A stretch of DNA of 64,000 bases, from IMG/VR virus record IMGVR_UViG_3300044537_000257, positions 1 to 64,000 of that record; one strand, written 5' to 3'. Shown here piece after piece: positions 3,639-48,160 of the stretch. Each line of letters begins with the position of its first letter. Position 1 is the first letter of the stretch. Below the pieces are notes generated by a model. The model made no database searches, was not told the DNA's origin, and saw nothing but the letters and a program-made list of their open reading frames with translations. The stretch is from a virus (taxonomy: Duplodnaviria; Caudoviricetes). A program made the translations under genes and the position numbers.

Positions 3639-3670
3639 ATCAGTCATCCTTTGAGGCTTACAAATAAATT

Positions 3671-3846
3671 TGTACAATATCGAATAATAACTGTTGACAT
3701 AAGTACAATATTGAGTAGAATAATATTTGTAAGCTAGATTGATAGCTAATTAAGTCAACAAAATAGAGCTAATGAATACCGTTCCCCAACGATTAATAGC
3801 TTTGTAAAGGCTTATTTAACTATGCATTGATTGTACAACATCGAGT
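3671..3846. promoter_or_regulatory. Genetic switch A: three operators WGTACAAYATYGART and the lytic promoter
   Basis: Operators at 3671-3685, 3702-3716 and 3832-3846; TTGACA at 3694-3699 with a -10-like TAGAAT at 3716-3721. Confidence 0.7.
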
Positions 3847-3925
3847 AAAAAATGACAATAGTTTATTCAAAGATATTCTAAATAGCTATCAATTTAGCTT
3901 ACATACATAAAAAGGAGGTGATTAA

Positions 3926-7331: not shown

Positions 7332-8027
7332 ATGGATCGTTCGGAAAGTATTAAAGAGATCACGGCGGCAATTGCAAAGGTTCAAGGAGAACTAAAGCCA
7401 ATTGCAAAAGATAGGGATAACCCAATCTCACATAGTAAATATGCAAATTTAGATAGTATTAACCAGGAATTGTTACCGTTGACTAGTAAAAATGGTTTGG
7501 CGGTCATGCAGTACCCCGTCACTAAGGACAATAAAATCGGCTGTGGCACCATCGTTACGCACACTTCTGGAGAATATTTACATTTTGAACCGTATTTGAT
7601 TACGGTTGCCGAGAACAAGCGAATGTCGGTCGCTCAGGAAGGTGGCGCTACGATCACGTACGCAAAACGTTATCAGATTTCAGCCATCTTTGGCATTGTT
7701 ACGGATGAAGATCAAGACGGAGCACAGCCAAATCCACCGCAACAAAGTAACCAACAGAATTATCATAAGCCAGGACAAGGTAACAGACCTAATAAACAGC
7801 AACGGAGTAAAAGTAGTTTAAGTAATGGAGCCAGCGGAATTTTAAATAATGCTACCAAGCTAATCAAACGAATCAGCGATAAAACACACGAGCCTGAGCC
7901 AGATATTTATCAACGTATTTTAGGCCAAGTGGGTTATGAGAGTTCTGAGTTACAAGAGGTCAGCAACGCCGCCAAATTTTTTAACGAAGTACAAACACAA
8001 TGGCGATCACTGGAGGGTAATAAATGA
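7332..8027 (+). CDS. erf: ERF-family single-strand annealing recombinase
   Basis: [38 protein letters not shown]. Confidence 0.9.
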
Positions 8028-8419
8028 TTAACAATGTTGTTTTAACGGGACGTTTAGCCCGAGATGTAGAACTACGGTATACCGGTAGTGGTGCAGCAGT
8101 TGCTTCATTCACTTTAGCAGTTAATCGCCAGTTCACTAATCGTAATGGTGAGCGTGAAGCCGACTTTATCAATTGTGTCATGTGGCGTAAATCAGCCGAA
8201 AATTTCGCTAACTTTACGCATAAAGGGTCACTAGTAGGTCTCACAGGACGTATTCAAACACGTTCTTATGACAATGATGCTGGTACCCGCGTTTATGTGA
8301 CCGAAGTTGTTGCTGATAATTTCTCGCTGTTGGAGCCGAAGTCAGATAATCAACAACCGACGCCCACATATCCTAGTGACACTGATGTCACAGTGGATGA
8401 CAAAGACATGCCATTTTAG
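8024..8419 (+). CDS. ssb: Single-stranded DNA-binding protein
   Basis: [20 protein letters not shown]...acidic tail ending DMPF. Confidence 0.95.
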
Positions 8420-10726: not shown

Positions 10727-11152
10727 ATGTCGAAAAAGCTGGAATTGAATATTAAATTATCCGAACTCGCTAATGGCGGCGCACAAGAAAAATTTAATCA
10801 CGAACTAAAACGGATTGCGGAAAACATTCTTGATCCTAACACGGACGCAAACAAGAAACGTAAAATCACGTTAACGACAACGTTTACGCCCAACGATGAT
10901 CGTAGCATTGTCACCATTGCCATTGATGTTAAGTCAACACTAGCGCCGGAGGTTGCTATTAATACGCTGATGATGGTTGGACGCAACAACAAGGGTCGAG
11001 TTGAGGCAAACGAGCTTAAATCGGGAACACCAGGTCAAACCTATTTTGATCCGGAGGACTCGACGCTAAAGGATGATAAAGGTGAGCCGGTCGATCAGGT
11101 TGAACAAAAAGCAAATAATGTTGTTGATCTGCAAGCCAAAAATAAAGCCTAG
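10727..11152 (+). CDS. Conserved phage protein, YfdP-like (often mis-annotated replication terminator)
   Basis: NGGAQEKFNHELKRIAENILDPNTDANKKRKITLT. Confidence 0.6.
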   Translation: MSKKLELNIKLSELANGGAQEKFNHELKRIAENILDPNTDANKKRKITLTTTFTPNDDRSIVTIAIDVKSTLAPEVAINTLMMVGRNNKGRVEANELKSGTPGQTYFDPEDSTLKDDKGEPVDQVEQKANNVVDLQAKNKA

Positions 11153-11164
11153 GAGGCCACGAAC

Positions 11165-11908
11165 ATGATTGAAAAAGCAGCATTGGAATATTTATCTGAG
11201 TTAGCGCAGGAAGCTGCCAGTAAGAAAATCATTAAGACTGAAGATGGTATCGAATACGGCATTGATGGGCAAGGCGATTTAACTCAATTACGACCGGCTA
11301 ACGGTGTCCGCAATGCACTGACCTTACACACATTATCTGGTGTAGTTGACTACGTTAAGAATAATGCTGAGCGCCAAACAGCTAGACTAATTTTGCACAT
11401 CGTTAACGAAACACACGTTGAATTACTTAACAGTTTAGATCAATACGATAACCGCGAAACATTAATTAAGTCTGATGCAATTGTGCCCGATATCTCTTTT
11501 GATAACTTTATCGCAGCAGAACAGTTGATCATTATTTTACAGTCACAGTTTGTTAACACATCTGACCGCGAAATTTTAATGAAAGTGCTGGGCAATTTGA
11601 AAGAAGAAAATGTTAAAAATGCGAGTGATGACGGCGTCTCTCAGGCGGTTACAGTTAAAACAGGCGTTGCCAGTGCGGGGGATGTACGTGTGCCTAACCC
11701 CGTTGAGTTACAGCCGTATCGGACGTTTGCCGAAATTGAACAACCCACCAGCAAGTTTATCTTTAGAATGCACGACGGGATGCGCGGCGCCTTAATTGAA
11801 AGTGACGGTGGCTACTGGCGCAACGATGCGATTCAGCGGATCAAAGAATACTTTGAAAAAGAGCTAAAAACTGAAATTGGTTCGAAGTATATCCGCATTA
11901 TCGCGTAA
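11165..11908 (+). CDS. Conserved phage protein, YfdQ/DUF2303-like partner
   Basis: VPNPVELQPYRTFAEIEQPTSKFIFRM...ALIESDGGYW. Confidence 0.6.
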   Translation: MIEKAALEYLSELAQEAASKKIIKTEDGIEYGIDGQGDLTQLRPANGVRNALTLHTLSGVVDYVKNNAERQTARLILHIVNETHVELLNSLDQYDNRETLIKSDAIVPDISFDNFIAAEQLIIILQSQFVNTSDREILMKVLGNLKEENVKNASDDGVSQAVTVKTGVASAGDVRVPNPVELQPYRTFAEIEQPTSKFIFRMHDGMRGALIESDGGYWRNDAIQRIKEYFEKELKTEIGSKYIRIIA

Positions 11909-11989
11909 TTAAAAGTAGTCGGGCCGTTAAGGACAAAGCTAACAATGCCTGAGCTTGCTCAAATCGGCTACTAGATGTGAGGTGAAAGC

Positions 11990-12349
11990 ATGAAAGAACG
12001 TGAATTGAAATTAATCAGACAACTTGAGGACCGTTATGGCAGTGTAATGAACGCGCCTGATGATGATCCGCGCTTGCTATTACTTAACAGGGAATTATCG
12101 GAAGACGAAGACGTTTATCTGTACCGTGTCACTGACCGTTACACGCATCGTAGTCGATATACTCAAAATATGACGGAATTAGCCAGCCTACTGAAGGTCA
12201 CCAGATCAGCAGTTTCTCAACAACTTAAAGTTGGTGGACCAATCAAGAGCCGTTATGTGGTATCACGTGGTGAGTGGTCAGAGCATGATGTTGGCACCTG
12301 GATTCAGGGCAAAAAGATCAGAAAGAGGAATAAAAACAACGGAAAATAA
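11990..12349 (+). CDS. Hypothetical HTH (NUMOD1-like) protein
   Basis: MTELASLLKVTRSAVSQ helix-turn-helix. Confidence 0.55.
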   Translation: MKERELKLIRQLEDRYGSVMNAPDDDPRLLLLNRELSEDEDVYLYRVTDRYTHRSRYTQNMTELASLLKVTRSAVSQQLKVGGPIKSRYVVSRGEWSEHDVGTWIQGKKIRKRNKNNGK

Positions 12350-12378
12350 TTAAAAACAATATTTAGGAGTGATAATGA

Positions 12379-12711
12379 TTGAAAAACCTAGGTGAAACAT
12401 TGAGAACAGTACAGCATGAAAGTTTTGAAATATGGTTTAATCGTTGGTTTGAGCATAATGACTTTCCGAAAACATTTGAAACTTCGGCAAAAAAAGGATA
12501 TTCAGCATATTCAATCGATGTGACTAAGTTTGACGATTACCTTAAACGTCGGTTAAGCGACGATCGGGTGCTGAAATTGCTTAAGAAAAAGTTGCCTGGC
12601 ATAAAAATTGAACGTGAACAAGGCAGTCTTACTAGACGGAATCTATTTAATATGAAATATACGAGCAAGTATAACCGCATTATTTTTAGCTGGGATGACG
12701 AAAAAAACTAA
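12379..12711 (+). CDS. Hypothetical cassette protein 1
   Basis: 110 aa, TTG start, between motif copies 1 and 2. Confidence 0.65.
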   Translation: MKNLGETLRTVQHESFEIWFNRWFEHNDFPKTFETSAKKGYSAYSIDVTKFDDYLKRRLSDDRVLKLLKKKLPGIKIEREQGSLTRRNLFNMKYTSKYNRIIFSWDDEKN

Positions 12712-12729
12712 GTTTAAGGGAGTGAAACA

Positions 12730-13005
12730 ATGCTTTTTAAAATTAAGCAAACGTCAATGTGGGATGACACAGTGACTGATGATATTTCAAAGATATTTAA
12801 TACTAGATTGTACAGTCAGCAAGAAATGCTTGGTGATGGTAAATCGGTACAGAAAACTGTCACAGTAACAGATATCTCAAATCTAGCTACTTTGATGGCA
12901 AAGCTGGAACAATACGGTGGTGAAGTTGTTATCGCATCATCAGACTGGGGTAGGCATAAACCCGAATTACCAGTGATAGAAATTTGTGATGATTTTCGTG
13001 AATAA
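12730..13005 (+). CDS. Hypothetical cassette protein 2
   Basis: 91 aa, ends IEICDDFRE, between motif copies 2 and 3. Confidence 0.65.
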   Translation: MLFKIKQTSMWDDTVTDDISKIFNTRLYSQQEMLGDGKSVQKTVTVTDISNLATLMAKLEQYGGEVVIASSDWGRHKPELPVIEICDDFRE

Positions 13006-13030
13006 AACTAGCTTTACGGAGGTTTAGTAA

Positions 13031-13270
13031 ATGAAAACATATATTGCTTTATGTGAATACACCACTTTGATAGATAATAAGTTTGTCAAAAAAACACATT
13101 ATATTCTCAATGCAGACAGCCCTGAACAAGCCTTTGACATGGCATGGTCTGCTATTGACGAATATCAAACTGATTTTAATAAAAAGAAGGATATAGCAGA
13201 GCACATTGATGGCTGTCCCATTGCTTTATATGAGTTGGCAACAGGTATCGAATTATCATCAGATTTATAG
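13031..13270 (+). CDS. Hypothetical cassette protein 3
   Basis: 79 aa, between motif copies 3 and 4. Confidence 0.65.
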   Translation: MKTYIALCEYTTLIDNKFVKKTHYILNADSPEQAFDMAWSAIDEYQTDFNKKKDIAEHIDGCPIALYELATGIELSSDL

Positions 13271-13304
13271 ACGTTAAAAGTTAAATTTACGGAGGAAATA
13301 GATT

Positions 13305-13661
13305 ATGAGTAAAACAATGATTCGCCGCATGAATGGCTTTATTAAATATCAGCTTAAAGGTGATGAGACAAATGATATTAGCGATGGCTCTCATACCTTT
13401 GGAGAACTTTATTACCACCGCGCAGTTTTGTTCGCGGTAGTCTGTAACAGCCATTCAGATGTATCTTGGAAGTCAAAACAGCACGAAGATGGCTCTATGT
13501 TCCCGGGTTACTTCGTTGTTGGCATTCATACACCGGAAGGAGATTACTCCTATCATTATGATCTGTCGGAATGGGATATGTTTAAAGTCCCAGAATTAGG
13601 CTATGCGCCTAAATGGGACGGGCATAGGCCAAGCGATATTGATCGGCTATTGTCGCTATAA
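13305..13661 (+). CDS. WDGH-domain protein (cassette 4)
   Basis: DGSHTFGELYYHR...SWKSKQHEDG...APKWDGH. Confidence 0.75.
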   Translation: MSKTMIRRMNGFIKYQLKGDETNDISDGSHTFGELYYHRAVLFAVVCNSHSDVSWKSKQHEDGSMFPGYFVVGIHTPEGDYSYHYDLSEWDMFKVPELGYAPKWDGHRPSDIDRLLSL

Positions 13662-13688
13662 AAGCTAACTTTAGAAAGGAAGATTGAA

Positions 13689-13832
13689 ATGAAATTAACA
13701 ATCGAAGGTACACCAGATGAAATTAAAAAAGTGCTCCAAACTGTCGGTAGCAGCGAGGAGCACAAATCAGATTCAAAATTAATGACGGAAGCGGAATACG
13801 AAAAACAAGTTAGTACAAAATGTGCTCATTGA
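13689..13832 (+). CDS. Small phage protein (47 aa, not in ORF track)
   Basis: MKLTIEGTPDEIKKVLQTV..., RBS AAGGAAG. Confidence 0.55.
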   Translation: MKLTIEGTPDEIKKVLQTVGSSEEHKSDSKLMTEAEYEKQVSTKCAH

Positions 13833-14097
13833 CATATTTCCACTCTTCTTCTGTTAGCCATCCGGCGTGAGCGTTTTTAACAATTTCAGATATAAAGAAT
13901 CTGTCATTACCGTCAGTTTTCTCTTTCAATTTGTTCATCATTTCTGAAGCTGTTAGGTTGCTTCTGAGCAGATATGTTGAATCCCAGTAATGGCACCATT
14001 CTCCAGTAGAAATATCCTTTTCGATAATTTTTCTAACTTCTGTATATCTTTGTCCGGGGTTATCAAGATCGTATGTCAGCATAAAAGGCTTACTCAT
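13810..14097 (-). CDS. Cas2/VapD-like ferredoxin-fold protein (commonly annotated 'SinR family')
   Basis: FMLTYDL...WCHYWDSTYLLRS...NDRFFISEI; RBS GGAGGTG. Confidence 0.6.
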   Translation of the reverse strand: MSKPFMLTYDLDNPGQRYTEVRKIIEKDISTGEWCHYWDSTYLLRSNLTASEMMNKLKEKTDGNDRFFISEIVKNAHAGWLTEEEWKYVNEHILY

Positions 14098-14127
14098 ATT
14101 GTTTCACCTCCCTTCAGAATTTAATTA

Positions 14128-14379
14128 TATCCGAATAAGGGATAGTAGAAAATAGCAAAAGAGGTGTGCCATGTCTTATTTAAAAGAAGTACGTAGGAAA
14201 AAGCATCTTACTCAAAAAGATGCGGCCGCTCTATTAGGCTTTTCCCGCTCTCGTTTTGCACAAATTGAGGGTGGCTTTATCACTCCGTCTTACAGATTTT
14301 TATTAGCGGTAAAAAAACAGTTCGGCAAGAACGTTGATATGAACAAGTTCTTTGAATGAAGTTATCCGGATAAAGGATA
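14128..14379. promoter_or_regulatory. Paired palindromic operators TATCC-N7-GGATA flanking the HTH gene
   Basis: 14128-14144 and 14363-14379. Confidence 0.55.
14171..14359 (+). CDS. XRE-family HTH regulator (62 aa)
   Basis: LTQKDAAALLGFSRSRFAQIEGG. Confidence 0.8.
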   Translation: MSYLKEVRRKKHLTQKDAAALLGFSRSRFAQIEGGFITPSYRFLLAVKKQFGKNVDMNKFFE

Positions 14380-14400
14380 GTAAAAAGTAATTTTCAGGAG

Positions 14401-14583
14401 GTGAATAAGATGAGTCCAACACTAAAGAAGGTATTAGGCTGGTTAATTATTGCGGTTTTTGTGAGTTTAGTTGTTACACTAACTGCCACAGATGTTGGCT
14501 GGTGGGCATCTATCCTTTTCTGGGCTGTTATACCTATTATATGCGCATTACTTACGGTTGCATTGTTTTGGGTCAGTCAATGA
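14401..14583 (+). CDS. Small two-TM membrane protein
   Basis: Two hydrophobic helices; likely start at 14410. Confidence 0.6.
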   Translation: MNKMSPTLKKVLGWLIIAVFVSLVVTLTATDVGWWASILFWAVIPIICALLTVALFWVSQ

Positions 14584-14586
14584 GAG

Positions 14587-14841
14587 GTGGTGATAGCTAT
14601 GAATGTTAAGAATAAGTACAAAATTGTTTTTGCTAAAAACGGCGTGACTATGAGTACGATCGTTTGGTCAGATAAAAGCTATTCCGAGTATATTGAGTGG
14701 TTCGACTGGAGAAATATGACCAACAAAAGCTACCAGATCGGTGGATTAATGGTAGCAGCTCCGGATATGATACAGATTCTTGATGCTAAAGTGACTTCCG
14801 GTGCGGCTAATGGTGATGCTGAAAAGGCGGTACCAGCATGA
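14587..14841 (+). CDS. Hypothetical protein ending in the shared NGDAEKAVPA tail
   Basis: 84 aa ORF; 3' end shared with 48161-48307. Confidence 0.55.
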   Translation: MVIAMNVKNKYKIVFAKNGVTMSTIVWSDKSYSEYIEWFDWRNMTNKSYQIGGLMVAAPDMIQILDAKVTSGAANGDAEKAVPA

Positions 14842-14969
14842 AGTTTTTAACTAATGTTTTAACAATAATCGCTGGCATAGTGATCTGCTGGTGGTTATTC
14901 GCAATCGTTGGGATGTTCTTATTGACCGTTCTTAAGTATTTAGTCTGGTTCTGGATGGTTATCAATTAA
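14838..14969 (+). CDS. 43-aa membrane peptide (not in ORF track)
   Basis: MKFLTNVLTIIAGIVICWWLFAIVGMFLLTVLKYLVWFWMVIN; homolog at 48304-48435. Confidence 0.7.
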   Translation: MKFLTNVLTIIAGIVICWWLFAIVGMFLLTVLKYLVWFWMVIN

Positions 14970-14985
14970 GGGAGTGTATTAAGCC

Positions 14986-16008
14986 ATGGAAACAGTTAGA
15001 ATCGCACCAGTTACTGATCAGTGGTTGCAGCATGAAGCACGTAAGTTTAACCGTAAGAAAATAGAGGAGTACCTGCAGCATTCGCCCCGGTTGGCACCGG
15101 CCACCTTACAGCAGTATCGATCATGTCTGCGCATCTTTGCCAAATGGATTCATGACTATTGCGGTAATAAAAAAATTATCGATCTAAAAATTAGGGATGG
15201 CAAGGCATATCAGGATTGGCTGTTAAGTCATAATGGCTCGACCAATAACATTAAGGTCAAGTTAGCCGCGGCTTCCGAACTTTGCGAGTACATTGAAAAA
15301 TATTACGAAGAAGAATACCCAGCGTTTAGAAATCCGATCCGCAAGGGACGTGAAGCTATGGTGCAGACGCCACGCAAAGAAAAGCATCCGATCACTCCAG
15401 AAGAATTTGAGCTATTAATTAAAACGTTAGAAAAGCGCCAGGATTATCAACGTCTGTGTTACTTAGTTTTGACTTACCAGACGGCCTGCAGACGAGCGGA
15501 ATCGGCCCAATTTGAGCGCCGAATAGCAAAGTATTCAGTGGGAGACATGCATTATTATCAAGATGCACAGGGGATGAACCATAATTATTTTTTGAGTAAC
15601 TCAATTCGATGCAAGGGTGCAGGTAAGCTAGGGAAGGTGCGCGAGTTTAAAATATCGACTGATACAATGCGCTATATCCGGCGTTGGGACAAGCAGCGTC
15701 GTGAGTTAGTGAATGGATTGGAACTAGGGGATGATGCTGCAAACTTATTCGTTCATATTGATCAAAGTGGTGTCACCGATTTAACACCAGCGGCATTTGC
15801 CTATTGGTTTTCTGATGATTTTAGCAAGATTTTGGGTCGTAATGTGCACCCACACGATCTTAGAACAACACGGGCAACAGACTTGGTAGTCCGTCAGCAT
15901 AAGCCAATTGAGGCGGTTAGTGTAATGATGGGTCATAATTCGACAGAGACGACTAAAACATTTTATGTGATCGACAATCGCAAGGACAGTGATGCCACAT
16001 TAATATAA
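14986..16008 (+). CDS. Second, stand-alone tyrosine recombinase (XerC-like, no arm domain)
   Basis: SAM-like N-terminus (LAPATLQQYRSCLRIF); catalytic R (ACRRAE), HPHDLR, GHNS, Y (TKTFY). Confidence 0.9.
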   Translation: METVRIAPVTDQWLQHEARKFNRKKIEEYLQHSPRLAPATLQQYRSCLRIFAKWIHDYCGNKKIIDLKIRDGKAYQDWLLSHNGSTNNIKVKLAAASELCEYIEKYYEEEYPAFRNPIRKGREAMVQTPRKEKHPITPEEFELLIKTLEKRQDYQRLCYLVLTYQTACRRAESAQFERRIAKYSVGDMHYYQDAQGMNHNYFLSNSIRCKGAGKLGKVREFKISTDTMRYIRRWDKQRRELVNGLELGDDAANLFVHIDQSGVTDLTPAAFAYWFSDDFSKILGRNVHPHDLRTTRATDLVVRQHKPIEAVSVMMGHNSTETTKTFYVIDNRKDSDATLI

Positions 16009-16091
16009 AAAAAGCCACCATTTGCATGGCAGCTAATCTCAGCAGATTAATTATAACATGGCTGATGCAAATCGGCGAGGGGTGAAAATGA

Positions 16092-16508
16092 GTGAAAGAG
16101 CTAACTAAGGCGGCCCTTGCGTGGCTAGACGATGAGTATATGAGATACACTAAAATCAATCACGATATTGCAGTGCGGAAACTAGAAATTGAGCATCCCT
16201 GGAAGCCCAACGATGACAATATCGGTGGCGGTCGTTCCAGTGTGATCACGCGGCCGCAAGAAAGCCTGGTATTAAAATATGATCAGGATAGGGTAATTAA
16301 TCGGCTGATTCAGTTACAGCGCGAGGTGGATGCCGCCAAAAGGCATATGGACGCGGAACAGTTAAAAATTTTTGAGATGCGCTATATTGGCACCAATTAC
16401 TATGACTGGGACACAATTGGTAGTCTGTTGCATTATGCGCACACGCCCATTTATCGCAAGCGATATAAATTACTTGAATTATTGGCCGAAGAAAAGGGAA
16501 TAATCTAA
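16092..16508 (+). CDS. ArpU/RinA-family late transcription activator
   Basis: DDNIGGGRSS...RYIGTNYYDWDTIG...IYRKRYKLLELLAEEKG; last early gene. Confidence 0.8.
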   Translation: MKELTKAALAWLDDEYMRYTKINHDIAVRKLEIEHPWKPNDDNIGGGRSSVITRPQESLVLKYDQDRVINRLIQLQREVDAAKRHMDAEQLKIFEMRYIGTNYYDWDTIGSLLHYAHTPIYRKRYKLLELLAEEKGII

Positions 16509-16564
16509 GTTGGTACTAGAATCGGTAGTTGTACCACTTAAAACCTGCTAAATTAGTATTATAG

Positions 16565-16639
16565 ATAAGTTAGTTTAAGGATGTCGTTAACCAAAATCTA
16601 AAAAAATTCAGTTCAATCGCAAGTCTTAAACTGATTTAT
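16565..16639 (+). ncRNA. Conserved structured RNA at the start of the late operon (copy 1)
   Basis: 16-bp outer stem; 48-nt core identical to 58777-58824. Confidence 0.6.
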
Positions 16640-16640
16640 T

Positions 16641-16670
16641 GGGAGCGCCCAGTATTGGGCGTTCCTTTTT
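16641..16670 (+). terminator. Intrinsic terminator after the late leader RNA
   Basis: GGGAGCGCCCA-gtat-TGGGCGTTCC-TTTTT. Confidence 0.75.
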
Positions 16671-16753
16671 GCGTACGTATGGCTACGTCTGTAGCACCGA
16701 GACAAAAATTTTCAGTGAATTAGAACATTGGTTGGCTGATAAGAAGAAACGTG

Positions 16754-16782
16754 AGCGTCGTGCTAAGAAGCATGGTGCTTTT
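16754..16782 (+). terminator. Second terminator-like hairpin
   Basis: AGCGTCGTGCT-aaga-AGCATGGTGCT-TTT (11 bp including G-U pairs). Confidence 0.5.
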
Positions 16783-16812
16783 AGTTTGGAGAAAAATAAG
16801 GAGGAATCAATT

Positions 16813-17082
16813 ATGGATTTTGGAGAAGCGCTTGAAGAATTAAAACGAGGTAATTGTGTTGCGCGTAAAGGTTGGAACGGCAAAGGCATCTTCATTAAAT
16901 TAAAAAAGGGAGAATCTTTGAACACTCCCAATAATCGTTTTAATGAGGTTATGACTCACGACTTCATTTATATTGACACGACTGGGCTACGCACGAACAA
17001 TCCGAATGCACCTATGGATCGAGTTCCATGGTTAGCTAGTCAAACTGACATGCTGGCTGATGACTGGGTCGTAGTCGAATAA
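16813..17082 (+). CDS. DUF2829 / Tad2-like cyclic-nucleotide sponge (anti-defence)
   Basis: MDFGEALEELKRGNCVARKGWNGKGIFI...PWLASQTDMLADDWVVV; GGAGG before ATG 16813. Confidence 0.8.
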   Translation: MDFGEALEELKRGNCVARKGWNGKGIFIKLKKGESLNTPNNRFNEVMTHDFIYIDTTGLRTNNPNAPMDRVPWLASQTDMLADDWVVVE

Positions 17083-22548: not shown

Positions 22549-22573
22549 AGCGATGAAGTTCATCGCTATTTTT
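22549..22573 (+). terminator. Hairpin after MuF
   Basis: AGCGATG-aagtt-CATCGCT-ATTTTT. Confidence 0.55.
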
Positions 22574-22649
22574 ACGCCCTTTTTCCCGTGCTGCAGGGCT
22601 AAAAGAACGACCGGAGATTGTCTCCCTAGACGTTAAACTGGAGGGCCTT

Positions 22650-23258
22650 ATGGCAGATGTAGTAGACGAAAAGAAGGATCAAGTCCAAAAGCCAGCTGAA
22701 AATGAAGAAAATAACAATGAATCCACTGAAAATACTGATAATGCGCAGTCAGATGATAACAAAGCGGATAAAATTGTTGAAAAACTTCAAAAGCGGATTG
22801 GCGAAGAACAAGCTAAGAAAAATGAGTATAAGGATCAACTTGATGATGCGTTAAAACGAATTGCCAGATTAGAAAAGGGTGAAGACCCTGACAAACCAGC
22901 ACCAAAGGACGAAAAAGATGAACGAATTGCGGCCCTTGAAGCACAGATCAAGCGTCGTGATATCACTGAACAAGCCCGAGATGTGCTAGTCAGCAGTGGG
23001 ATGAACGTGCCATCTGATGTGTTAGACCGGCTGGTGTCGGATGACAACAAGGCAACGCTGGCCAACGTTAAATCTTTTGTGACTTATATCCAATTGGTGC
23101 GTGAAGATGCACGCAAAGAACTCTTAGCTGGAACCACGCCGAAGGATGCACCAACCGGCGGTACCACGAAGAAGTTAAAGGATATGTCTTTAGCTGAGCG
23201 TAGTCAGTTAGCATCCGAGGATATGACGCTTTATCAACAATTGCGCCAACAAAAATAG
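22650..23258 (+). CDS. Capsid scaffolding protein (DUF4355-like)
   Basis: Acidic N-terminus, coiled coil, ELLAGTTPK. Confidence 0.8.
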   Translation: MADVVDEKKDQVQKPAENEENNNESTENTDNAQSDDNKADKIVEKLQKRIGEEQAKKNEYKDQLDDALKRIARLEKGEDPDKPAPKDEKDERIAALEAQIKRRDITEQARDVLVSSGMNVPSDVLDRLVSDDNKATLANVKSFVTYIQLVREDARKELLAGTTPKDAPTGGTTKKLKDMSLAERSQLASEDMTLYQQLRQQK

Positions 23259-33081: not shown

Positions 33082-36000
33082 ATGCAATTATATGTACTCG
33101 ACCGCGCCAAGAACACTTTGGCCACGACCTCAAGTTTTTATAGCGACAAGCACCATAAAGAGTTGACCGCCGGTGCATCGATCTTTGAGTTTACGATTGA
33201 TAAATCTGACTCAGCCGCCCAGTATATGACGACCGGGAATTACCTAGTGTTCCAGGATGACCGTGGGCGGGCGTGGTCGTTTACGATTTTGAGCTACGAC
33301 GAAACGCAGACGACTAAGACTGTTGCCGCCGAAGATGTCAGTATCGAATTGCTTAATAAAGCCATGGACGTCTGGAATACTGATCAAGCTTATCCGTTTA
33401 GCTATTATTTTGACTTAGTGACAAAAGGCACACCGTGGACACTTGGTGTTAACCAGCTGACCGATTTATCACGTAAACTAGTTTACACAGGCCGAGACAC
33501 TGGCTTAGGCCGATTGCTGTCCGTTTTAAAGGGCTTTGATAATGCGGAGTGTCAGTTTAATATCAAAGTAAAACAAAACAGTCCTATCGAGTTTACCGTC
33601 GACGTTTATAAATCAATCGGCACCGTGCAGGATAATATCCAAATTGTCTATAACAATGAGTTAAATGACATTAAAAAGACAGAGAGCCGCGCCCAATTTG
33701 TTACTGCATTAGCCGGTGTGGGTGGCTTGGTCGAAAATCAAGCAACAACTGATCCTGGGCTGGAGAAACATATTGATTTTACTGATATTGACTATAAAGA
33801 CGATAACTTTGTGTCGCCAAAGGGCGATAAATTTTTACGAGCGGTTACGGCTAACCGAACATTTAATCCAGGGACAACCACTTATATTGAGGACTTTTAC
33901 GACTACGATACACAGAGTAGCCAGGAGCTGCTTAACCGTACGCTGACACAACTTAAGGAGCGCTCAGAACCACAGTACACCTACAATGCTGACGTTAAAG
34001 TGATTGACCCCACACTGGATATTGGCGATACGGTGACCATTATCGATCACGATTATAACCCAGCACTCTATTTGCAAGCACGGGTGGCCACGTTGGATAA
34101 GTCATACACGGATCCCACGCAAGGCGCGATCACGTTTTGTAATTACCGGGTGCTTAACAGCAACCTATCCGATCAGCTACGAGCAATGCAAAATATCATT
34201 GATCAGCTGCCAACCAGCGCATCAATCAAGGTAATTAACAATAATATTGTGCAGATGATTACTCAAAATGAGGAGCTTAAAAAGCAAGTCGCCCTATCGT
34301 TTGAGTCAGCCAACGGTAAGAGCCGGGTATGGTTTAGCCGATCATCAACCGCGCAAAACGGCGATGTTGCTTTTATCAAAAACGCTGACGGCGCCACTGA
34401 GATTTGGAAGTTTGTTGAGGGCGCCTGGAAACTGGACACCGGTTTAGCCACATTTGATGACGTTAAAAAAGCCGCGAGTGCGGCGGCAGATGCTGGCAGT
34501 CAGGCAGTTACTGCTGGCCAACAGGCGAGCGCCGCTGGTAGTCAAGCCGCTGTTGTAGGATTGCAGGCAAGTACAGCCGGAAGCCAAGCAATTTCTGCCG
34601 GCAATCAAGCCAGTTTAGCTGACAGTCAAGCTGCTATAGCTGGCAGTCAGGCAGTTACTGCTGGTAGTCAAGCCAGTTCTGCTGGTAGTCAGGCAGTTGT
34701 TGCAGGATTGCAGGCCAGTGCCGCAGGTAGCCAAGCGATTTCTGCTGGTAGTCAGGCCAGTTGGGCCGGTAGTCAAGCCGCTGTAGCTGGTAAGCAAGCA
34801 AGCGCCGCTGGTAGTCAAGCAGTTATTGCTGGTCAACAAGCTAGTACAGCCGGAAGCCAAGCGATTTCTGCTGGTAGTCAGGCCAGTTGGGCCGGTAGCC
34901 AAGCTGCTGTAGCTGGTAAGCAAGCGAGCACTGCTGGCAGTCAGGCAGTTACTGCTGGCCAACAAGCCAGTGCTGCAGGTGCCGATGCTAAATCAGCTGG
35001 AGACTTTGCGGCTAGTGCCGCTAGTCAATCTACAATCGAGACGTCAGCAGCACGATCGACAGCTAATAGTGCGGTGGATCAAGCTAATTTAGCTGTCTCA
35101 CAAGCAGGCTTTGCCAATAATGCTGCAGATCAGGCTAAGTCAGCTGCGGCTAGTGCGCAGAGTGATGCTGCCGGTGCTTTAGGAAAAGCTAGTACAGCAA
35201 TCACTAATGCTAGTACCGCCATAAACGCGGCCACTGATGCGCAGACTAAGACCAACTCACTGGTCACCAAGGTTGACGATATTGCTGGGACAATTAAGAC
35301 CCTAGCAACTACTGAGACCGTTGACCAGTTGGCAGGTACCGTCGCGACCACTCAAAGCTTAGCGCAGTTTGCGGCTGACGGTCTCAAGCTCAAGGCAGAT
35401 ACGACCACAGTCGATAAGATCAATGGCACAGTCAACGATCTTAAGGGTGAGCTTGATGTGCAGGCGGATAAGATTGCCGCCACGGTTACCGCTAGTGATG
35501 TGACTGGAATGCTTGGTAATTACGCTACTCAGTCATGGTCTCAGGGGCAGATATCTGCTGCTAAAAATGAGATTTCCGCGTCGGTTGAGACGGTGCAAAC
35601 TCAGGTTAAAAACAGTGCGGTTGGCACTAATTTATTAACAGGAACGAGTTCGTCAGAACAGTCATACATGAATGACTTTTCAACCGTTCCCGGTTGGATT
35701 TATAGTAACTTTCTACAAGGGTCACAACCTGCTGTTAATGTCGGAAGCACCTATACCTACTCGATATATTTAACGAAATTAACGGGGTCTTTTGCTTTGG
35801 GGTATTGGGGATATGACAGCAATAAAAAATATGCTAGATGGTTCCCTAGTCCTATTTATTCTTCATTGGGTAAAGTTTCATGGACGTTCACGATTCCTAG
35901 TGGAATATCTTATATAGTTCCACATGTTGTGCACGCTTCTGATGATTTTACTTGTACAGCAAAAGAAGAAAAACTTGAAAAAGGGTCCGTAGCTACTGAT

Positions 36001-38091
36001 TGGTGCCTAGCGCCGGAAGATCAGGCGACTGTTGATTGGACTAAATCTCAACTAGATATTAAAGATGGCAAAATTTCTGCTGCTGTGACTAGCTTAAAGA
36101 GCGATATAACCAACGCCACCGCAGGTATGGCGACACAGACGTGGACACAAGGGAGGCTTGATTTAACGGCTGAGGGTTTTACCAGCCAGATTAGCAGTGT
36201 GCAGACAAATCTAGATAACATGCAAATCGGCGGTCGTAACTATATCTTAAACAGCGGCCAGCCCATTACGATTAATGGCGATACTGATCACTTTAAGATA
36301 CTGTATTATAATTTAACGCCAGGGACTTGGACATTTAGTGCTAACGCCAAATATACTCGTGGCACCGATACCTCAGTTTTTCTGGCTATTTATTCGGCCG
36401 ACACAGCAATTGGCTATAATAACGCATCCGTACCAATTGTTAACGGTAAAATCGCTTGGACATTTAAGCCAAACAATCCGGCCGGCGTACTGCTATTAAT
36501 GTACGCTGGTTCAGGGTCTTGGGGGACAACGCCTGGGAAAACGCTGGAAGTCAGCCATCGAAAGCTAGAAAAAGGCAACAAATCGACAGACTGGTCTCCA
36601 GCACCGGAGGATCAAGCTACTGTAGCAGACGTATCTAGCCAATTTACCCAGCTCCAAAACGACATTAATCTCCGCGTTAAAACGGGTGATTTAGTTAGTC
36701 AAATTGATGTTAACGCCAAACGGATTTTACTCGATGGCGCAAGCACCTATATTACAAATACAACTCACATCGACACCGGTGTGATTAAAACAGCCATGAT
36801 CGCTGATGCCGCCATTACAAACGGTAAGATCGCTAATGCGGCGATCGATAATGCTAAAATCGCTGACGCGTCAATCGACAATGCTAAAATCGCTGATTTA
36901 GCTGTTAGCACGGCTCAAATAGCCGACGGCGCTATAACAAATGCCAAGATCGGTAACGCATCGATCACGACGGCAAAAATCGGCGACGCACAAATTAATA
37001 GTGCTAAAATTGGTGCATTAGCCGTAAACACTGCACAAATTGCCAATGGTGCGATCACAACCGCAAAAATCGGTTCACTAGCTGTTGGCACGGCTCAAAT
37101 AGCCGATGGTGCAATCAATAGCGCCAAAATCGCGTCACTGGCTGTAGGCACCGCCCAGATAGCAGATGGTGCAATCAGCAATGCCAAAATTGGTAAAGCG
37201 GCAATCTTTTCTGCGCAAATTGCCGAATTAGCTGTGGGTACCGCCCAGATCGCTGATGCCGCCATCACAAATGGCAAAATCGCTAATGCGTCAATCGACA
37301 ATGCTAAAATCGCAAATGCGGCGATCACGGCTGCTAAGATCGCTGATTTAGCCGTAGGTAGCGCACAGATCGCCGATGGTGCCATTAGTAGCGCTAAGAT
37401 AGGTAATGCCGCGATCACATCTGCACAAATTGCCGATGCATCGATTATTGATGCCAAAATTGTTAATTTAGATGGTAGTAAAATTGTCGCTAACTCGATC
37501 ACAGCAGATAAGCTAGATGTTAATGCGATTGAAGTTGGGCTAAACACTTACGGGATTGGTTGGCAGATTACGCCGGCAAGCATTAAATTTTTACCATCTG
37601 CCAGCAGCACTAAGGCTAGCTTAATTTTAACCGGTGAAGGCATCATCTTGGGCGATACTACCACCGGTGAAATGCTGGGAGAAATTACTGGATCACCTTT
37701 TGATTTGACCAAAGACACCTGGTTCAATGGATTTAACCTATTGCTTAAATACAACGGTGGTGATTTTGTGCATCTAGGTCGAGAGAAAGCAGATGGCACC
37801 ATGAGCAGTAAAATGATCTGGAGTAACGCTGATGAGAGTAGTTTTGGTATTTATTCGGGTTTTAATTTTTACGATCATGTGCATTTTAATACTATTGGCC
37901 CATTTGATCCTGATGATAATGCGCAAATGCACGTAGTCCGAACGCAGATTGATGGCCATTGGTGTACCGGATTTATGGCGCACGACGGGCTTGCTGGCGT
38001 GGCATTTGGCGATGGTGGCTGGCTGTATCTTGAGCGAGATAATAAATGGATTGATTTTTGGAACATTGTCAACAAAATCGGACTAGCGTGA
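33082..38091 (+). CDS. Tal / tail spike-fibre (endopeptidase-type N-terminus, repeats, putative binding modules)
   Basis: 1669 aa; TLDIGDTVTIIDHDYNPALYLQARV; two GxNL/Y...KLEKG..TDW.PAPED modules. Confidence 0.9.
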   Translation: MQLYVLDRAKNTLATTSSFYSDKHHKELTAGASIFEFTIDKSDSAAQYMTTGNYLVFQDDRGRAWSFTILSYDETQTTKTVAAEDVSIELLNKAMDVWNTDQAYPFSYYFDLVTKGTPWTLGVNQLTDLSRKLVYTGRDTGLGRLLSVLKGFDNAECQFNIKVKQNSPIEFTVDVYKSIGTVQDNIQIVYNNELNDIKKTESRAQFVTALAGVGGLVENQATTDPGLEKHIDFTDIDYKDDNFVSPKGDKFLRAVTANRTFNPGTTTYIEDFYDYDTQSSQELLNRTLTQLKERSEPQYTYNADVKVIDPTLDIGDTVTIIDHDYNPALYLQARVATLDKSYTDPTQGAITFCNYRVLNSNLSDQLRAMQNIIDQLPTSASIKVINNNIVQMITQNEELKKQVALSFESANGKSRVWFSRSSTAQNGDVAFIKNADGATEIWKFVEGAWKLDTGLATFDDVKKAASAAADAGSQAVTAGQQASAAGSQAAVVGLQASTAGSQAISAGNQASLADSQAAIAGSQAVTAGSQASSAGSQAVVAGLQASAAGSQAISAGSQASWAGSQAAVAGKQASAAGSQAVIAGQQASTAGSQAISAGSQASWAGSQAAVAGKQASTAGSQAVTAGQQASAAGADAKSAGDFAASAASQSTIETSAARSTANSAVDQANLAVSQAGFANNAADQAKSAAASAQSDAAGALGKASTAITNASTAINAATDAQTKTNSLVTKVDDIAGTIKTLATTETVDQLAGTVATTQSLAQFAADGLKLKADTTTVDKINGTVNDLKGELDVQADKIAATVTASDVTGMLGNYATQSWSQGQISAAKNEISASVETVQTQVKNSAVGTNLLTGTSSSEQSYMNDFSTVPGWIYSNFLQGSQPAVNVGSTYTYSIYLTKLTGSFALGYWGYDSNKKYARWFPSPIYSSLGKVSWTFTIPSGISYIVPHVVHASDDFTCTAKEEKLEKGSVATDWCLAPEDQATVDWTKSQLDIKDGKISAAVTSLKSDITNATAGMATQTWTQGRLDLTAEGFTSQISSVQTNLDNMQIGGRNYILNSGQPITINGDTDHFKILYYNLTPGTWTFSANAKYTRGTDTSVFLAIYSADTAIGYNNASVPIVNGKIAWTFKPNNPAGVLLLMYAGSGSWGTTPGKTLEVSHRKLEKGNKSTDWSPAPEDQATVADVSSQFTQLQNDINLRVKTGDLVSQIDVNAKRILLDGASTYITNTTHIDTGVIKTAMIADAAITNGKIANAAIDNAKIADASIDNAKIADLAVSTAQIADGAITNAKIGNASITTAKIGDAQINSAKIGALAVNTAQIANGAITTAKIGSLAVGTAQIADGAINSAKIASLAVGTAQIADGAISNAKIGKAAIFSAQIAELAVGTAQIADAAITNGKIANASIDNAKIANAAITAAKIADLAVGSAQIADGAISSAKIGNAAITSAQIADASIIDAKIVNLDGSKIVANSITADKLDVNAIEVGLNTYGIGWQITPASIKFLPSASSTKASLILTGEGIILGDTTTGEMLGEITGSPFDLTKDTWFNGFNLLLKYNGGDFVHLGREKADGTMSSKMIWSNADESSFGIYSGFNFYDHVHFNTIGPFDPDDNAQMHVVRTQIDGHWCTGFMAHDGLAGVAFGDGGWLYLERDNKWIDFWNIVNKIGLA
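34490..34985 (+). repeat. 7/14-aa AGSQA repeats in Tal with a 126-nt near-perfect duplication
   Basis: GSQAVTAGQQASAA units; approx. 34727-34825 vs 34853-34951. Confidence 0.85.
36790..37500 (+). repeat. 5/10-aa (AKIAD/AAITN) repeats in the Tal C-terminal half
   Basis: Over 200 aa of xKIxx/xAIxx periodicity. Confidence 0.85.
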
Positions 38092-40728: not shown

Positions 40729-40821
40729 ATATCCTGGATTATTTAAAAGTAGATATCCTAGCTTGATAGATGTTTAGCTATCTTATTAGGCATATATAAT
40801 AGTAGCTTTTTTATCAGCGGC

Positions 40822-41021
40822 TGTGCAAAATTTGTGCAAAATGATTTAGTTTTATATCTGTCTTTATCTGTAAATAAAAAATAAGAACCTTACTAAACGT
40901 TGATTTAGCAAGGTTCTTATTTTTTATAATTTTGTTTAACTGCTTATAAAATGGAGGCGGCGGGCATTTTGAATATTGATGTGACGCTACTTTAACGGGC
41001 CTTGTGCAAAGTTTGTGCAAA
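40822..41021. other. attP-like junction of integrase 2: arm repeats on both sides of a tmRNA-type core
   Basis: TGTGCAAA x2 at 40822/40833 and at 41003/41014; core TGGAGGCGGCGGG at 40952-40964 (minus: CCCGC-CGCCTCC-A). Confidence 0.7.
40876..40925. terminator. Bidirectional terminator hairpin in the att region
   Basis: AAAAAATAAGAACCTT...AAGGTTCTTATTTTTT. Confidence 0.7.
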
Positions 41022-42134
41022 ATCATTGCTGAAATTTTCTGGTTTTAAATCTGACAACGCGGTGATGATTTTGTCATCGGTTTTTTGCTTATACTCATCG
41101 ATTAAATAGGAGTAGACACGGCTGGTCACGGTGATATCCGAGTGGCCTAATCGTTTAGAGATTGCATACAGATCAACCCCGTGTGATAAAAGATAAGCAA
41201 CATGGGTGTGGCGGCAGGAATGGAAATGGAAGCCTTTACGATTAATGCCAAGCTCTTTCATCGCCGCGCGTAAAACCTTATTGACCGCGTTTGAGGTGGG
41301 GATCGTTTTAAACTGGTTGGCAAAGATCCGGTACTGTTTATCCTCATGTGGTAACTCACTGATTAGCTCAAGCAACCATTTATCGGTGCGAATTGTACGC
41401 TGAGAAGCATCGTTTTTTAAATCCTCAAAGGCTTTAGCGGACTCACTCCACGATTGATTAACTGAGATCGTATTAAAATTTTTATTAATATTTTCCCAGG
41501 TCAAGCCACCAATTTCGCCGGGGCGCATCCCCGTAAATAGGGCAGTAATGATCATATATTTTGATGTATAATGCGGGTTACGCGTTTTCATGAGATAATC
41601 GACTAACTGTTTAGTCTCTTTTTCGCTTAAATATTCAATATCCCAAGTTTTATCTTTATCATAGACCAGCACTGATTTTTCGATAAAATCTTTTTGGATC
41701 ACACCATCATAGACCGCATCTTTTATACTGGCGTGGTAAAGCGAGTTTAGCTTAGACACGGTAGATTTAGCCCGATGCTTGCCAAAATTCTTGATAAACT
41801 TTTGATAAGCGCGCCGATCCATTTCATCAATACGTGCATTAGGTAAAAACTGTTTAAGCACCTTATGCGCGTAAACGTAGGTGCCAACGGTCCGGTTACG
41901 GATGCTAGACTCCTTATAAGTCTCGTACCATTCCCAAAAATAGTCGGCAAAAAGCGGTGGCCGCTTTGATTTTAATTCGCCGTTGTCGGCTTTTATCTCA
42001 TACTCGTTTGCAAAAAGCTGGGCTTCGCGCTTGGTTTTAAAACCAGCTTGGCTCTTTGTGCGAAATTTACCGGTCTCGTCTTTATAGCTGACTCGGACCT
42101 GCCAGTTGCTGCCACGTTTTTTTATGCTGGCCAT
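40992..42134 (-). CDS. int: Tyrosine integrase 2
   Basis: TGMRPGEI, FHSCRHTH, LGHSDITVTSRVY. Confidence 0.95.
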   Translation of the reverse strand: MASIKKRGSNWQVRVSYKDETGKFRTKSQAGFKTKREAQLFANEYEIKADNGELKSKRPPLFADYFWEWYETYKESSIRNRTVGTYVYAHKVLKQFLPNARIDEMDRRAYQKFIKNFGKHRAKSTVSKLNSLYHASIKDAVYDGVIQKDFIEKSVLVYDKDKTWDIEYLSEKETKQLVDYLMKTRNPHYTSKYMIITALFTGMRPGEIGGLTWENINKNFNTISVNQSWSESAKAFEDLKNDASQRTIRTDKWLLELISELPHEDKQYRIFANQFKTIPTSNAVNKVLRAAMKELGINRKGFHFHSCRHTHVAYLLSHGVDLYAISKRLGHSDITVTSRVYSYLIDEYKQKTDDKIITALSDLKPENFSNDFAQTLHKAR

Positions 42135-45793: not shown

Positions 45794-45982
45794 ATGGATA
45801 AATGGCTAGCCTTTTTAAATGGGCTTTGGACTATGTTGTCTATCATTACACTAGCGATCGTGTTGATAGCTGATGAAGTCACCGTTAATCATATCCCCAT
45901 TGTAGGTAGACTAAAACTGATTGTGATAGCGACATGCATCATTGTCATTGCTTGGAATATCGTAAAGATGATCAGACTGTAA
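45794..45982 (+). CDS. Two-TM membrane protein
   Basis: 62 aa, hydrophobic. Confidence 0.55.
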   Translation: MDKWLAFLNGLWTMLSIITLAIVLIADEVTVNHIPIVGRLKLIVIATCIIVIAWNIVKMIRL

Positions 45983-45998
45983 AAAACTAAGTTTAGGA

Positions 45999-46262
45999 GT
46001 GATTGATGTGAAAGTTAGAATCACTACTGTTGATGATGACCAAGGCTGGTTAGATGCCGCCGGGATACCTTATAAAGCCAACGATATCATAGAAATGACC
46101 AGAGATGAGTTTGATCAATTAAATCGCTATGCCGCTAATATCAACAACGAAGTTTGCGGGCCAGCAATCAGTGTAGAAGACGTTACCACGTTACAAGAAA
46201 ATGGTGCCGAAGCAATTGAATTAATGCAACGCTTTGATGAAAAAATTAATTTAGGGAGATGA
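45999..46262 (+). CDS. Hypothetical protein
   Basis: 87 aa, after the boundary motif at 45982. Confidence 0.55.
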   Translation: MIDVKVRITTVDDDQGWLDAAGIPYKANDIIEMTRDEFDQLNRYAANINNEVCGPAISVEDVTTLQENGAEAIELMQRFDEKINLGR

Positions 46263-46495
46263 TCCGGGTGGCTTCTAGAGGGAAACACAAACGTATTTAT
46301 GCGCTCTACCGCGGCGATCAATATATCTGTGACGGCACAGCGTACGAGCTGGCTACTGATACTGGTTTAAAAGCCGCAACCATCTTATGGTATGCCACAG
46401 GTGTCCGTCGGCGCCGGGTAGATAGCCAACAGAGAAAATCAAAGAAATCAATCATTGTTGAGCCGATTGGCTGGGACGATGGCGACGATGATTAA
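46259..46495 (+). CDS. Small HTH protein (NUMOD1-like)
   Basis: RIYALYRGDQYICDGTAYELA; paralog at 53355. Confidence 0.6.
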   Translation: MIRVASRGKHKRIYALYRGDQYICDGTAYELATDTGLKAATILWYATGVRRRRVDSQQRKSKKSIIVEPIGWDDGDDD

Positions 46496-47935: not shown

Positions 47936-48141
47936 AGGAACCAGTTAATTGGTCAATATTTAATATTGATCCTTGGAATGGTAGCCAAGATGTAACGAAA
48001 GCTCAACTACAGGCTGAGTTTAAAAAGTATTCAGGAACGCCTAGAGAGTTTGCAAAAGAATTAGCACACCGTTTTGAATGGTCGGGATATATGTGTGAGC
48101 TTGCAGAGCAATGGGCTAGCCAAATTACTGATAAAAAGTAA
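47932..48141 (+). CDS. Hypothetical protein
   Basis: 69 aa, ends at the boundary motif at 48132. Confidence 0.55.
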   Translation: MKEPVNWSIFNIDPWNGSQDVTKAQLQAEFKKYSGTPREFAKELAHRFEWSGYMCELAEQWASQITDKK

Positions 48142-48160
48142 TTTTCAGGAGGTGAATCAT

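Follow-up and report, generated by a model that had tools for sequence, protein, structure and literature searches.

Linkers in the early operon of two tandem prophages

The window analyzed here, meaning the whole stretch of 64,000 nucleotides (nt) at positions 1 to 64,000 of the viral record IMGVR_UViG_3300044537_000257, belongs to a 72-kb IMG/VR entry that contains two related prophages in tandem arrangement, from now on referred to as prophage A and prophage B. The early operon of prophage A runs rightward and encodes an antirepressor, DUF771 and DUF1351 proteins, an Erf-family protein, a single-stranded DNA-binding protein (SSB) and an HNH-type nuclease. These are followed by ten small genes (11990-14969), a tyrosine recombinase, an ArpU-type late regulator and packaging genes. 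Short recurrent sequences, each consisting of a WAAA-N6-TTT[AC] motif and a Shine-Dalgarno (SD) sequence and here called linkers, are located between small genes of this operon and of prophage B. A first-pass annotation of the window had interpreted them as sites of an integron-like cassette array served by the recombinase. Based on the comparisons below, they are phage mosaic linkers and not a phage integron. The linkers of prophage A, the three linkers of prophage B (motif starts 45982, 46240 and 48133) and the associated small genes are the following.

12352-12378, plus strand: linker a (AAAAACAATATTTA, GGAG and spacer), 5' of the gene for a 110-amino-acid protein
12703-12729, plus strand: linker b (AAAAACTAAGTTTA and AGGGAG), its spacer TAA being the stop codon of gene 12379-12711
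13003-13030, plus strand: linker c (TAAAACTAGCTTTA and CGGAGG), its left TAA being the stop codon of gene 12730-13005
13276-13304, plus strand: linker d (AAAAGTTAAATTTA and CGGAGG), 5' of a WDGH-domain gene
13660-13688, plus strand: linker e (AAAAGCTAACTTTA and GAAAGGAAG), at the left end of a 743-bp block shared with the related phage L002 (96.6%)
14381-14409, plus strand: linker f (TAAAAAGTAATTTTC and AGGAGGTGAAT), in which the L002 block has its right end at 14401
45982-46007, plus strand: copy of linker b in prophage B
46240-46267, plus strand: linker g (AAAAAATTAATTTA and GGGAG) of prophage B, overlapping the 3' end of the upstream gene
48132-48160, plus strand: copy of linker f in prophage B, its spacer TAA being the stop codon of gene 47932-48141
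12379-14969: small accessory genes between and after the linkers, encoding proteins of 110, 91, 79, 118 (WDGH), 47, 95 (minus strand, 13810-14097), 62 (helix-turn-helix, HTH), 57, 80 and 43 amino acids

All six sites proposed for prophage A by the first-pass annotation are present where it had placed them (12352, 12703, 13003, 13276, 13660 and 14382, the last ending in TTTC). Every site either overlaps a stop codon or follows it closely, with GGAG or GGAGG 0-2 nt further on. The spacings between the sites are 351, 300, 273, 384 and 722 bp, and the 722-bp unit comprises three genes, one of them on the minus strand. Similarly, a purine at spacer position 1 and an A at position 4, given as invariant, are found in all six window sites but in only 87% and 80%, respectively, of 69 distinct sites from 17 phages. 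Two sites do recur between unrelated genes in prophage B as claimed: AAAAACTAAGTTTA is found again at 45982, and 26 nt of linker f (14381-14406) are 100% identical to 48132-48157, with flanks that share no homology.

Motif enrichment was assessed against shuffled sequences. The bare 14-mer is weakly enriched, approximately 2-fold (31 matches in the window versus 16.7 +/- 4.8). A composite motif, defined as WAAA-N6-TTT[AC] followed after 0-3 nt by an SD sequence, is enriched approximately 14-fold on the plus strand (10 versus 0.69 +/- 0.78 expected, maximum 3 in 200 dinucleotide shuffles) and occurs once on the minus strand; the stretch 11901-14900 contains 6 copies versus 0.05 expected. The other gene starts of the window, including those of all late genes, do not carry the composite motif. 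In the 2.7-Mb Loigolactobacillus zhaoyuanensis genome, just two matches to the strict pattern were found, both in the prophage and 5' of the recombinase gene. The motif is thus not a host feature, and a generic host ribosome-binding context was rejected on this ground. Among 109 unrelated viral contigs with one match, none contained a cluster of matches. Together, enrichment, host scan and control contigs rule out that motif frequency reflects AT-rich ribosome-binding context in general, a possibility raised by the annotation itself.

The sequence logo of the 69 distinct sites gives the consensus G-N4-T-AAAA-R-N-TAA-N-TTTA-(N0-2)-GGAGG-spacer-start. The supposedly free spacer contains T-A-A in 53-55 sites, the distance from TTTA to the SD sequence is 0-2 nt in all 69, and stop codons in at least two frames are present in 64. 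A long upstream open reading frame (ORF) is found at 62 sites, and its real stop codon is a spacer stop in 26 cases (TAA at +6 in 23), the left-arm TAA in 16 and a codon further upstream in 17. Islands shared among phages extend through the SD sequence and sometimes up to the start codon which, together with the conserved spacer TAA, indicates that the unit is the whole intergenic junction and not the symmetric 14-mer. Dyad symmetry is limited to AAA/TTT with arms of 4 bp, and the motif is found in a single orientation, with conservation running asymmetrically through the SD sequence to the start codon. No sigma-70 promoter-like sites, terminator-like sites or stable hairpins were detected at the linkers, and a promoter/terminator cassette reading was therefore rejected.

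Linker order, slot contents and homology breakpoints

The comparison set consisted of 17 related Loigolactobacillus-type prophages, with loci (given as L or G numbers) found via the recombinase and, independently, via linker sequences. L026-L034, which matched the linker e pattern, were set aside because the matches lie in a stretch conserved within a different phage group that has a lower GC content and no arrays. Approximately eight recurrent linker variants could be distinguished, arranged in the order g (AAAAAATTAATTTA), a, h (TAAAACTAAATTTA), b, c, d, e and f, with 136 concordant and 12 discordant pairs (18 phages, which are not independent). Variant a is also found in L005, L009, L017, L021 and L039, and variant g in L009 and L017, with a near-match (TAAAAATTAATTTA) in L002. 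Linker b is present as an exact 25-nt island in L010, surrounded by different genes, linker c has exact 20-nt matches in L017 and L038, and linker d forms isolated islands of 19-27 nt located 5' of unrelated genes in L001, L004, L022 and others. Scanning viral contigs with the exact 23-mer of linker f gave no match, and a scan for linker b gave one, unrelated-looking match. Exact runs shared by the same variant across phages measure 14-35 nt, and those between different linkers within prophage A 5-10 nt.

The genes between a given pair of linkers differ among phages. Slot c-to-d contains singletons encoding 79, 100, 107, 168 or 89 amino acids, or members of small families of 69 or 75 amino acids. 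Slot d-to-e is occupied by the WDGH gene in prophage A and by an unrelated family in L001, L010 and L021. In L004 (5403-7658) and L017 (6940-9198), the same slot encodes a 212-amino-acid protein, a 229-amino-acid N6-methyltransferase-like protein and a 312-amino-acid additional tyrosine recombinase, giving these two phages three tyrosine recombinases each. Slot e-to-f contains a three-gene module (47 amino acids, 95 amino acids and HTH) common to prophage A, L001 and L002, and the WDGH gene in L017. Most cargo genes are ORFans, those identified being DNA methylases and a 'host nuclease inhibitor' PHROG. For 12379-14969, ORF calls and family scans likewise showed a majority of ORFans and a majority of genes without a same-slot homologue in related phages. 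The nuclease inhibitor match (PHROG 803, E = 4e-14) belongs to a 75-amino-acid cargo gene of prophage B (46268-46495), and L001 2179-2397 shows a weak match to Pfam 'Sequestin'; both would fit host-takeover or anti-defence cargo.

Homology between related phages ends at 38 of 54 linker junctions (70%) versus 68 of 301 other plus-strand gene starts (23%), an excess with an odds ratio of 8.1 (p = 2e-11, the phages being related). Linker windows make up 1.1% of the sequence and contain 15.7% of all homology ends. The check proposed with the annotation, namely whether breakpoints among related phages fall at the motif, thus came out in its favor. Individual cases illustrate this. The 94% homology between prophage A and L009 stops at 12370, inside linker a. 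L004, L005, L006 and L010, otherwise identical prophages, diverge inside one linker, right after GAGTTGTAAAAC, with L004 and L006 converging again in linker e. Prophage A and L002 share 96.6% identity across the block 13659-14401, whose ends are linkers e and f, but just 69.8% in the neighboring recombinase genes, pointing to a recent exchange of the e-f slot. Other breakpoints are located away from linkers, at 13763, at 14095 and within the gene 5' of the recombinase in L005, indicating that ordinary within-gene homologous exchange also occurs.

Positions 13763 and 14095 belong to the module at 13689-14359, which consists of the 47-amino-acid gene, the minus-strand 95-amino-acid gene (phrog_1090) and the divergent 62-amino-acid HTH gene, and in which L001 carries an unrelated 72-amino-acid gene in place of the minus-strand gene. 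Overall, gene exchange at the motif is supported by these sequence comparisons. The cassette model of the first-pass annotation can accordingly be split: breakpoints and changing genes support sites that delimit exchangeable gene units, whereas its second part, a tyrosine recombinase acting on them in integron-like fashion, is not supported, as described below.

The tyrosine recombinase and its surroundings

The recombinase gene, the inverted repeat that follows it and the other features of the two prophages referred to in the text are as follows.

14986-16008, plus strand: non-integrative Xer-like tyrosine recombinase, 340 amino acids, last gene of the early operon (PF00589 and SAM-like N-domain)
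16013-16034: inverted repeat or hairpin GCCACCAT-TTGC-ATGGCAGC, 20 nt, located 5 nt after the recombinase stop codon
140-1312, minus strand: integrase of prophage A, the prophage extending from this gene to approximately 40.9 kb
7332-8027, plus strand: Erf-family single-strand annealing protein of prophage A
8024-8419, plus strand: SSB of prophage A, proposed to take part together with Erf in catalysis of exchange at linkers
16092-16508, plus strand: ArpU/RinA-type late transcription regulator (phrog_36)
40992-42134, minus strand: integrase of prophage B, marking the start of this prophage

The recombinase matches PF00589 with 37.2 bits (cut-off 27.1) and shows a weak, sub-cut-off match to a SAM-like core-binding N-domain; no arm-binding domain was detected in it. 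The catalytic residues R, K, HxxR, H and Y are conserved, with ACRRAES, IRCKG, HPHDLR, GH and FY kept in homologues, and HxxR, GH and Y align with XerC-like 4a8e. A phmmer search against the PDB gave no match. In a profile search against the PDB, the top matches were Xer-type proteins (XerC-like 4a8e with 1.6e-11, XerA and XerD), with IntI4 found only at E = 0.037. The enzyme is distinct from the separate integrase encoded at 140-1312. The array had been described as ending in an intact recombinase without arm domain, which is correct with regard to the protein but not to its position, as three motif-less small genes (14410-14969) intervene after the last site. The nearest genomic relative of the recombinase (91%) is found in L. 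zhaoyuanensis 187-3, and the host of the window is Loigolactobacillus-like. A megablast search of 11000-17000 against GenBank phages returned a 182-bp match to an L. brevis phage as its sole match, meaning that this region has no annotated close relative among them.

In 10 related Loigolactobacillus-type prophages, homologues of the recombinase hold this same place after the array. The co-occurrence of motif and recombinase, which the annotation proposed to check, does not hold throughout. Prophage B has no homologue though three linkers are present, and proviruses G003, G005 and G006 (93-100% complete) contain 4-7 linkers each while their sole PF00589 match is the terminal integrase. The single PF00589 match of G004 is likewise its terminal integrase, and the same search on the window's own record gives 3 matches. 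Among the 9 contigs that were found via the motif itself, only 2 encode the recombinase. Conversely, L011 and L018 encode the recombinase (67% identical) without an array. The recombinase gene of L002 comes immediately after linker f and thus behaves like a cargo gene there. From its distribution among these genomes, the recombinase is not tied to linker arrays.

Full-length homologues with 35-43% identity are Lactococcus phage 949 ORF131 and gp50 of Tsamsa-like Tyroviruses. In phage 949 (L042) and for gp70 of Bacillus phage Skywalker (L043), the gene is located in the tail module, with tail genes on one side and the tape-measure gene directly 3' of it, a placement kept across two unrelated groups of large siphophages. 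The stop codon of Tyrovirus gp50 is directly followed by an inverted repeat that has been proposed to be the site of this enzyme (PMC9703825), and this repeat was also observed in the sequence here.

The inverted repeat at 16013-16034 is present as a single copy in the 72-kb record. It is also found in L001 (3592), L004-L006 (9032), L009 (11029), L010 (11026) and L017 (11026), being 100% identical in L004-L006 despite 66.5% DNA identity of the recombinase gene. L011 contains a variant in which both arms are altered together, and the repeat is missing in L002 and L012. Its shape is that of a minus-strand intrinsic terminator and its place matches that of the site proposed for gp50. It also fits a tyrosine-recombinase core site better than the linkers do. 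The repeat may thus be the recombinase's own site, as a candidate and no more, or a terminator of the minus-strand type. For the enzyme, a single dedicated site is the most likely target, with a function such as multimer resolution or circularisation.

Several further features of the window should be noted. A 53-nt non-coding block upstream of the packaging genes shows 96% identity between prophages A and B (16576-16628 and 58777-58829) with differing flanks and may represent a late promoter or ArpU target or a packaging site. A 93-nt block just 5' of a head gene (22565-22657 and 62916-63008) is 100% identical between the prophages and exceeds the adjoining coding sequence (75-92%) in conservation. 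The gene for a 1669-amino-acid tail protein (33082-38091) contains in-frame periodic repeats of 21 nt and 30 nt at 34471-35021 and 36790-37471. At the prophage junction, beside the prophage B integrase gene, direct repeats with GTGCAAA-N-TTTGTGCAAAAT (40805-40846 and 40986-41027) may be copies of the attachment site.

Interpretation and comparison with known systems

We consider it probable that the linkers are translation junctions that double as short homologies for recombination by phage Erf or RecT proteins, with the tyrosine recombinase uninvolved. Each linker, 20-30 nt long and with the motif as its upstream half, takes up the entire space between neighboring small genes of a presumably polycistronic early operon. 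It would provide two TAA stops belonging to different frames, along with an unstructured leader rich in A and U and a strong SD sequence. Any upstream gene would thereby be terminated and any downstream gene translated. Because variants and their order are common to related phages, each variant would in addition match the same variant of a co-infecting or co-resident phage exactly over 14-35 nt. Genes between two linkers could be replaced slot by slot via these short homologies without deleting their neighbors, and the dissimilarity among linkers of one genome would guard against deletions. Exchange is probably catalyzed by Rad52-like annealing proteins that the phages themselves encode, namely Erf in prophage A and RecT in L002, the latter phage also encoding YqaJ. 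Both Erf and RecT recombine short and diverged homologies efficiently (PMC3945230). The tyrosine recombinase would merely be the last gene of the operon and would not act on the linkers.

A number of points weigh against this interpretation. Minimal efficient pairing segments of 23-27 bp for Red-beta and 31-34 bp for RecA have been described (PMC3945230). Many same-variant matches measure 14-22 nt, below the Red-beta segment, which makes it uncertain that homologous recombination at them is efficient. Gene boundaries would be expected to carry breakpoints anyway, and the most variable region is where the linkers are located. The compared phages share descent, which inflates both the p-value and the order concordance. 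Islands flanking unrelated genes call for repeated exchange or for selection on the sequence, where a binding factor could be involved. Finally, constant ends around a variant-specific 6-nt center are also expected of heterospecific recombinase sites.

The last point bears directly on the model of the first-pass annotation, in which WAAA-N6-TTTA sites are core sites of the orphan recombinase and cassettes are captured, excised or reordered as in an integron. The resemblance of the linkers to heterospecific lox-type sites, the breakpoints located at them and the intact recombinase at the downstream array end of 10 related prophages all agree with such a model. It is nevertheless very improbable, given that arrays exist without recombinase (prophage B, G003, G005 and G006, with 2 of 9 motif-found contigs having it) and recombinase without array (L011 and L018, as well as the 35-43% homologues in tail modules). 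Furthermore, arms of 4 bp with no dyad beyond AAA/TTT, asymmetric conservation up to the start codon, fixed phasing 0-2 nt from the SD sequence and a single orientation do not suit recombinase core sites, the linkers hold their position rather than moving with cassettes, and the recombinase itself is found cargo-like behind linker f in L002. A related idea is that the ordered, dissimilar linkers constitute a selected exchange scaffold, a natural form of recombinase-mediated cassette exchange that would in its strongest form employ a dedicated site-specific enzyme, either the orphan recombinase in trans or the integrases. We regard this as rather doubtful. If true, identical variants would pair across phages while different variants within a genome could not, and co-resident prophages would trade anti-defence and host-takeover genes slot by slot, with neighboring genes kept.

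Two alternatives assign the motif a regulatory role. Linkers might be RNA or DNA sites bound by a phage or host factor that tunes translation or stability of early genes, breakpoints being a by-product, in analogy to the start-associated sequences (SAS) of mycobacteriophages. Such a role is unlikely, though several observations speak for it: the single orientation 0-2 nt from the SD sequence, the restriction to non-structural early genes, the absence from the host genome, the unrelated genes downstream and agreement with the published SAS description (PMC3203893). In addition, the upstream stop codon precedes the motif in 17 of 62 ORFs, so that the motif is kept where it is not needed as a stop. 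On the other hand, no candidate factor is common to all array phages, with prophages A and B differing in replication and immunity modules, and a common binding site would not require approximately eight discrete, position-ordered variants. A regulatory role of this kind is also compatible with a role in recombination. Stoperator-like silencing of the operon in the lysogen by a dimeric repressor or Cro-type protein is highly unlikely. The 14-mers are quasi-palindromic, intergenic and found in one orientation, as are L5-type stoperators (mentioned in PMC3203893), but their dyad comprises only 3-4 bp. The switch operators are GTACAAYATYGAGTA repeats in prophage A (3670-3850) and TCAACA-N2-TGTTGA in prophage B (44290 and 44543). 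These being different sequences, the repressor-operator reading was rejected; the two prophages differ in immunity specificity yet share linkers b and f. Chance or generic AT-rich ribosome-binding context is hardly credible. The roughly 2-fold enrichment of the bare 14-mer and a sequence made up of A/T runs, stop codons and an SD sequence speak for it. It conflicts with the strand-specific, approximately 14-fold enrichment of the composite motif, the absence of the motif from late and host genes, the recurrence of exact 20-27-nt islands between unrelated genes in many phages and the lack of arrays in all 109 control contigs.

Phage accessory regions accumulate anti-defence and host-takeover genes, and how these turn over rapidly without damage to the genome is only partly understood. 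The locus represents a compact, testable case in lactic acid bacteria, with 6-8 position-specific linkers and many genes per slot. As its tandem prophages share two linkers, the window provides a ready system to measure linker exchange and its dependence on Erf or the recombinase. The attractive claim of a phage integron is unsupported, and attention shifts to non-integrative tyrosine recombinases, a family that is widespread in phages.

Similar to integrons, the linker arrays are unidirectional, consist mostly of promoterless small genes separated by short imperfect palindromes and adjoin a tyrosine recombinase gene. However, neither an attI nor an attC-like site of 57-141 bp, an imperfect palindrome folding in single-stranded form, was found at the linker arrays. 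IntI is usually encoded divergently by attI, whereas the recombinase here is Xer-like, co-directional and at the downstream end, and attC moves with its cassette whereas linkers stay while genes change. Tyrosine-recombinase core sites in general have inverted arms of 7-13 bp around a 6-8-bp crossover region and no set orientation toward adjacent genes, unlike the linkers with their 4-bp arms and fixed orientation. In lambdoid phage mosaics, according to the modular model of Susskind and Botstein, conserved boundary or linker sequences are found where modules are swapped. Both those boundary sequences and the linkers described here are short, conserved and intergenic, carry a ribosome-binding site and are located at swapped modules. 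They differ in host group, and the linkers here form an ordered series of 6-8 within 2-5 kb with many occupants per slot.

Promoter-early stem-loops (PeSLs) of T4-type phages are regulatory cassettes (Arbiol et al. 2010, PMC2839356; Comeau et al. 2014, PMC4122927) and resemble the linkers in being short conserved regulatory repeats between small ORFan genes of a hyperplastic early region. In both systems, the ends of indels or replacements between related phages fall in the repeats, as was found here, and homologous recombination is proposed as the route of exchange. The authors of the PeSL studies themselves liken the arrangement to integrons (PMC2839356; PMC4122927). PeSLs are approximately 100 bp long and consist of a strong sigma-70 promoter and a terminator stem-loop, with mini-circles shown by inverse PCR, while the linkers measure 20-30 nt, contain stops and an SD sequence, have no promoter or stable hairpin and occur as position-specific ordered variants.

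The SAS and extended SAS (ESAS) of Cluster K mycobacteriophages (Pope et al. 2011, PMC3203893) are likewise short and asymmetric with symmetric outer parts, GGG-N7-CCC in SAS compared with AAAA-N6-TTTA in linkers. They are found in one orientation a few nt 5' of the start codon, overlap or abut the SD sequence and sometimes include the upstream stop codon. The genes that follow them are non-structural and come from different families, and the host genome is essentially free of them (PMC3203893). The likeness to the linkers is one of kind. The two are unrelated in sequence, differ in host phylum, and SAS follow a single consensus whereas linkers form ordered variants; a role at mosaic breakpoints is not reported for SAS in the consulted portion of the source (PMC3203893). 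With regard to the recombinase, Tyrovirus gp50 and 949 ORF131 (PMC9703825) resemble it in their Xer-like two-domain architecture and in not being known to take part in integration, and an inverted repeat immediately follows the stop codon of gp50, as it does for the window recombinase at 16013-16034. Those two genes belong to the tail module, whereas the window recombinase gene closes the early operon, with the late regulator next in line. New in the system described here are the host group, the make-up of two stops and an SD sequence and the ordered series of dissimilar variants with many occupants per slot.

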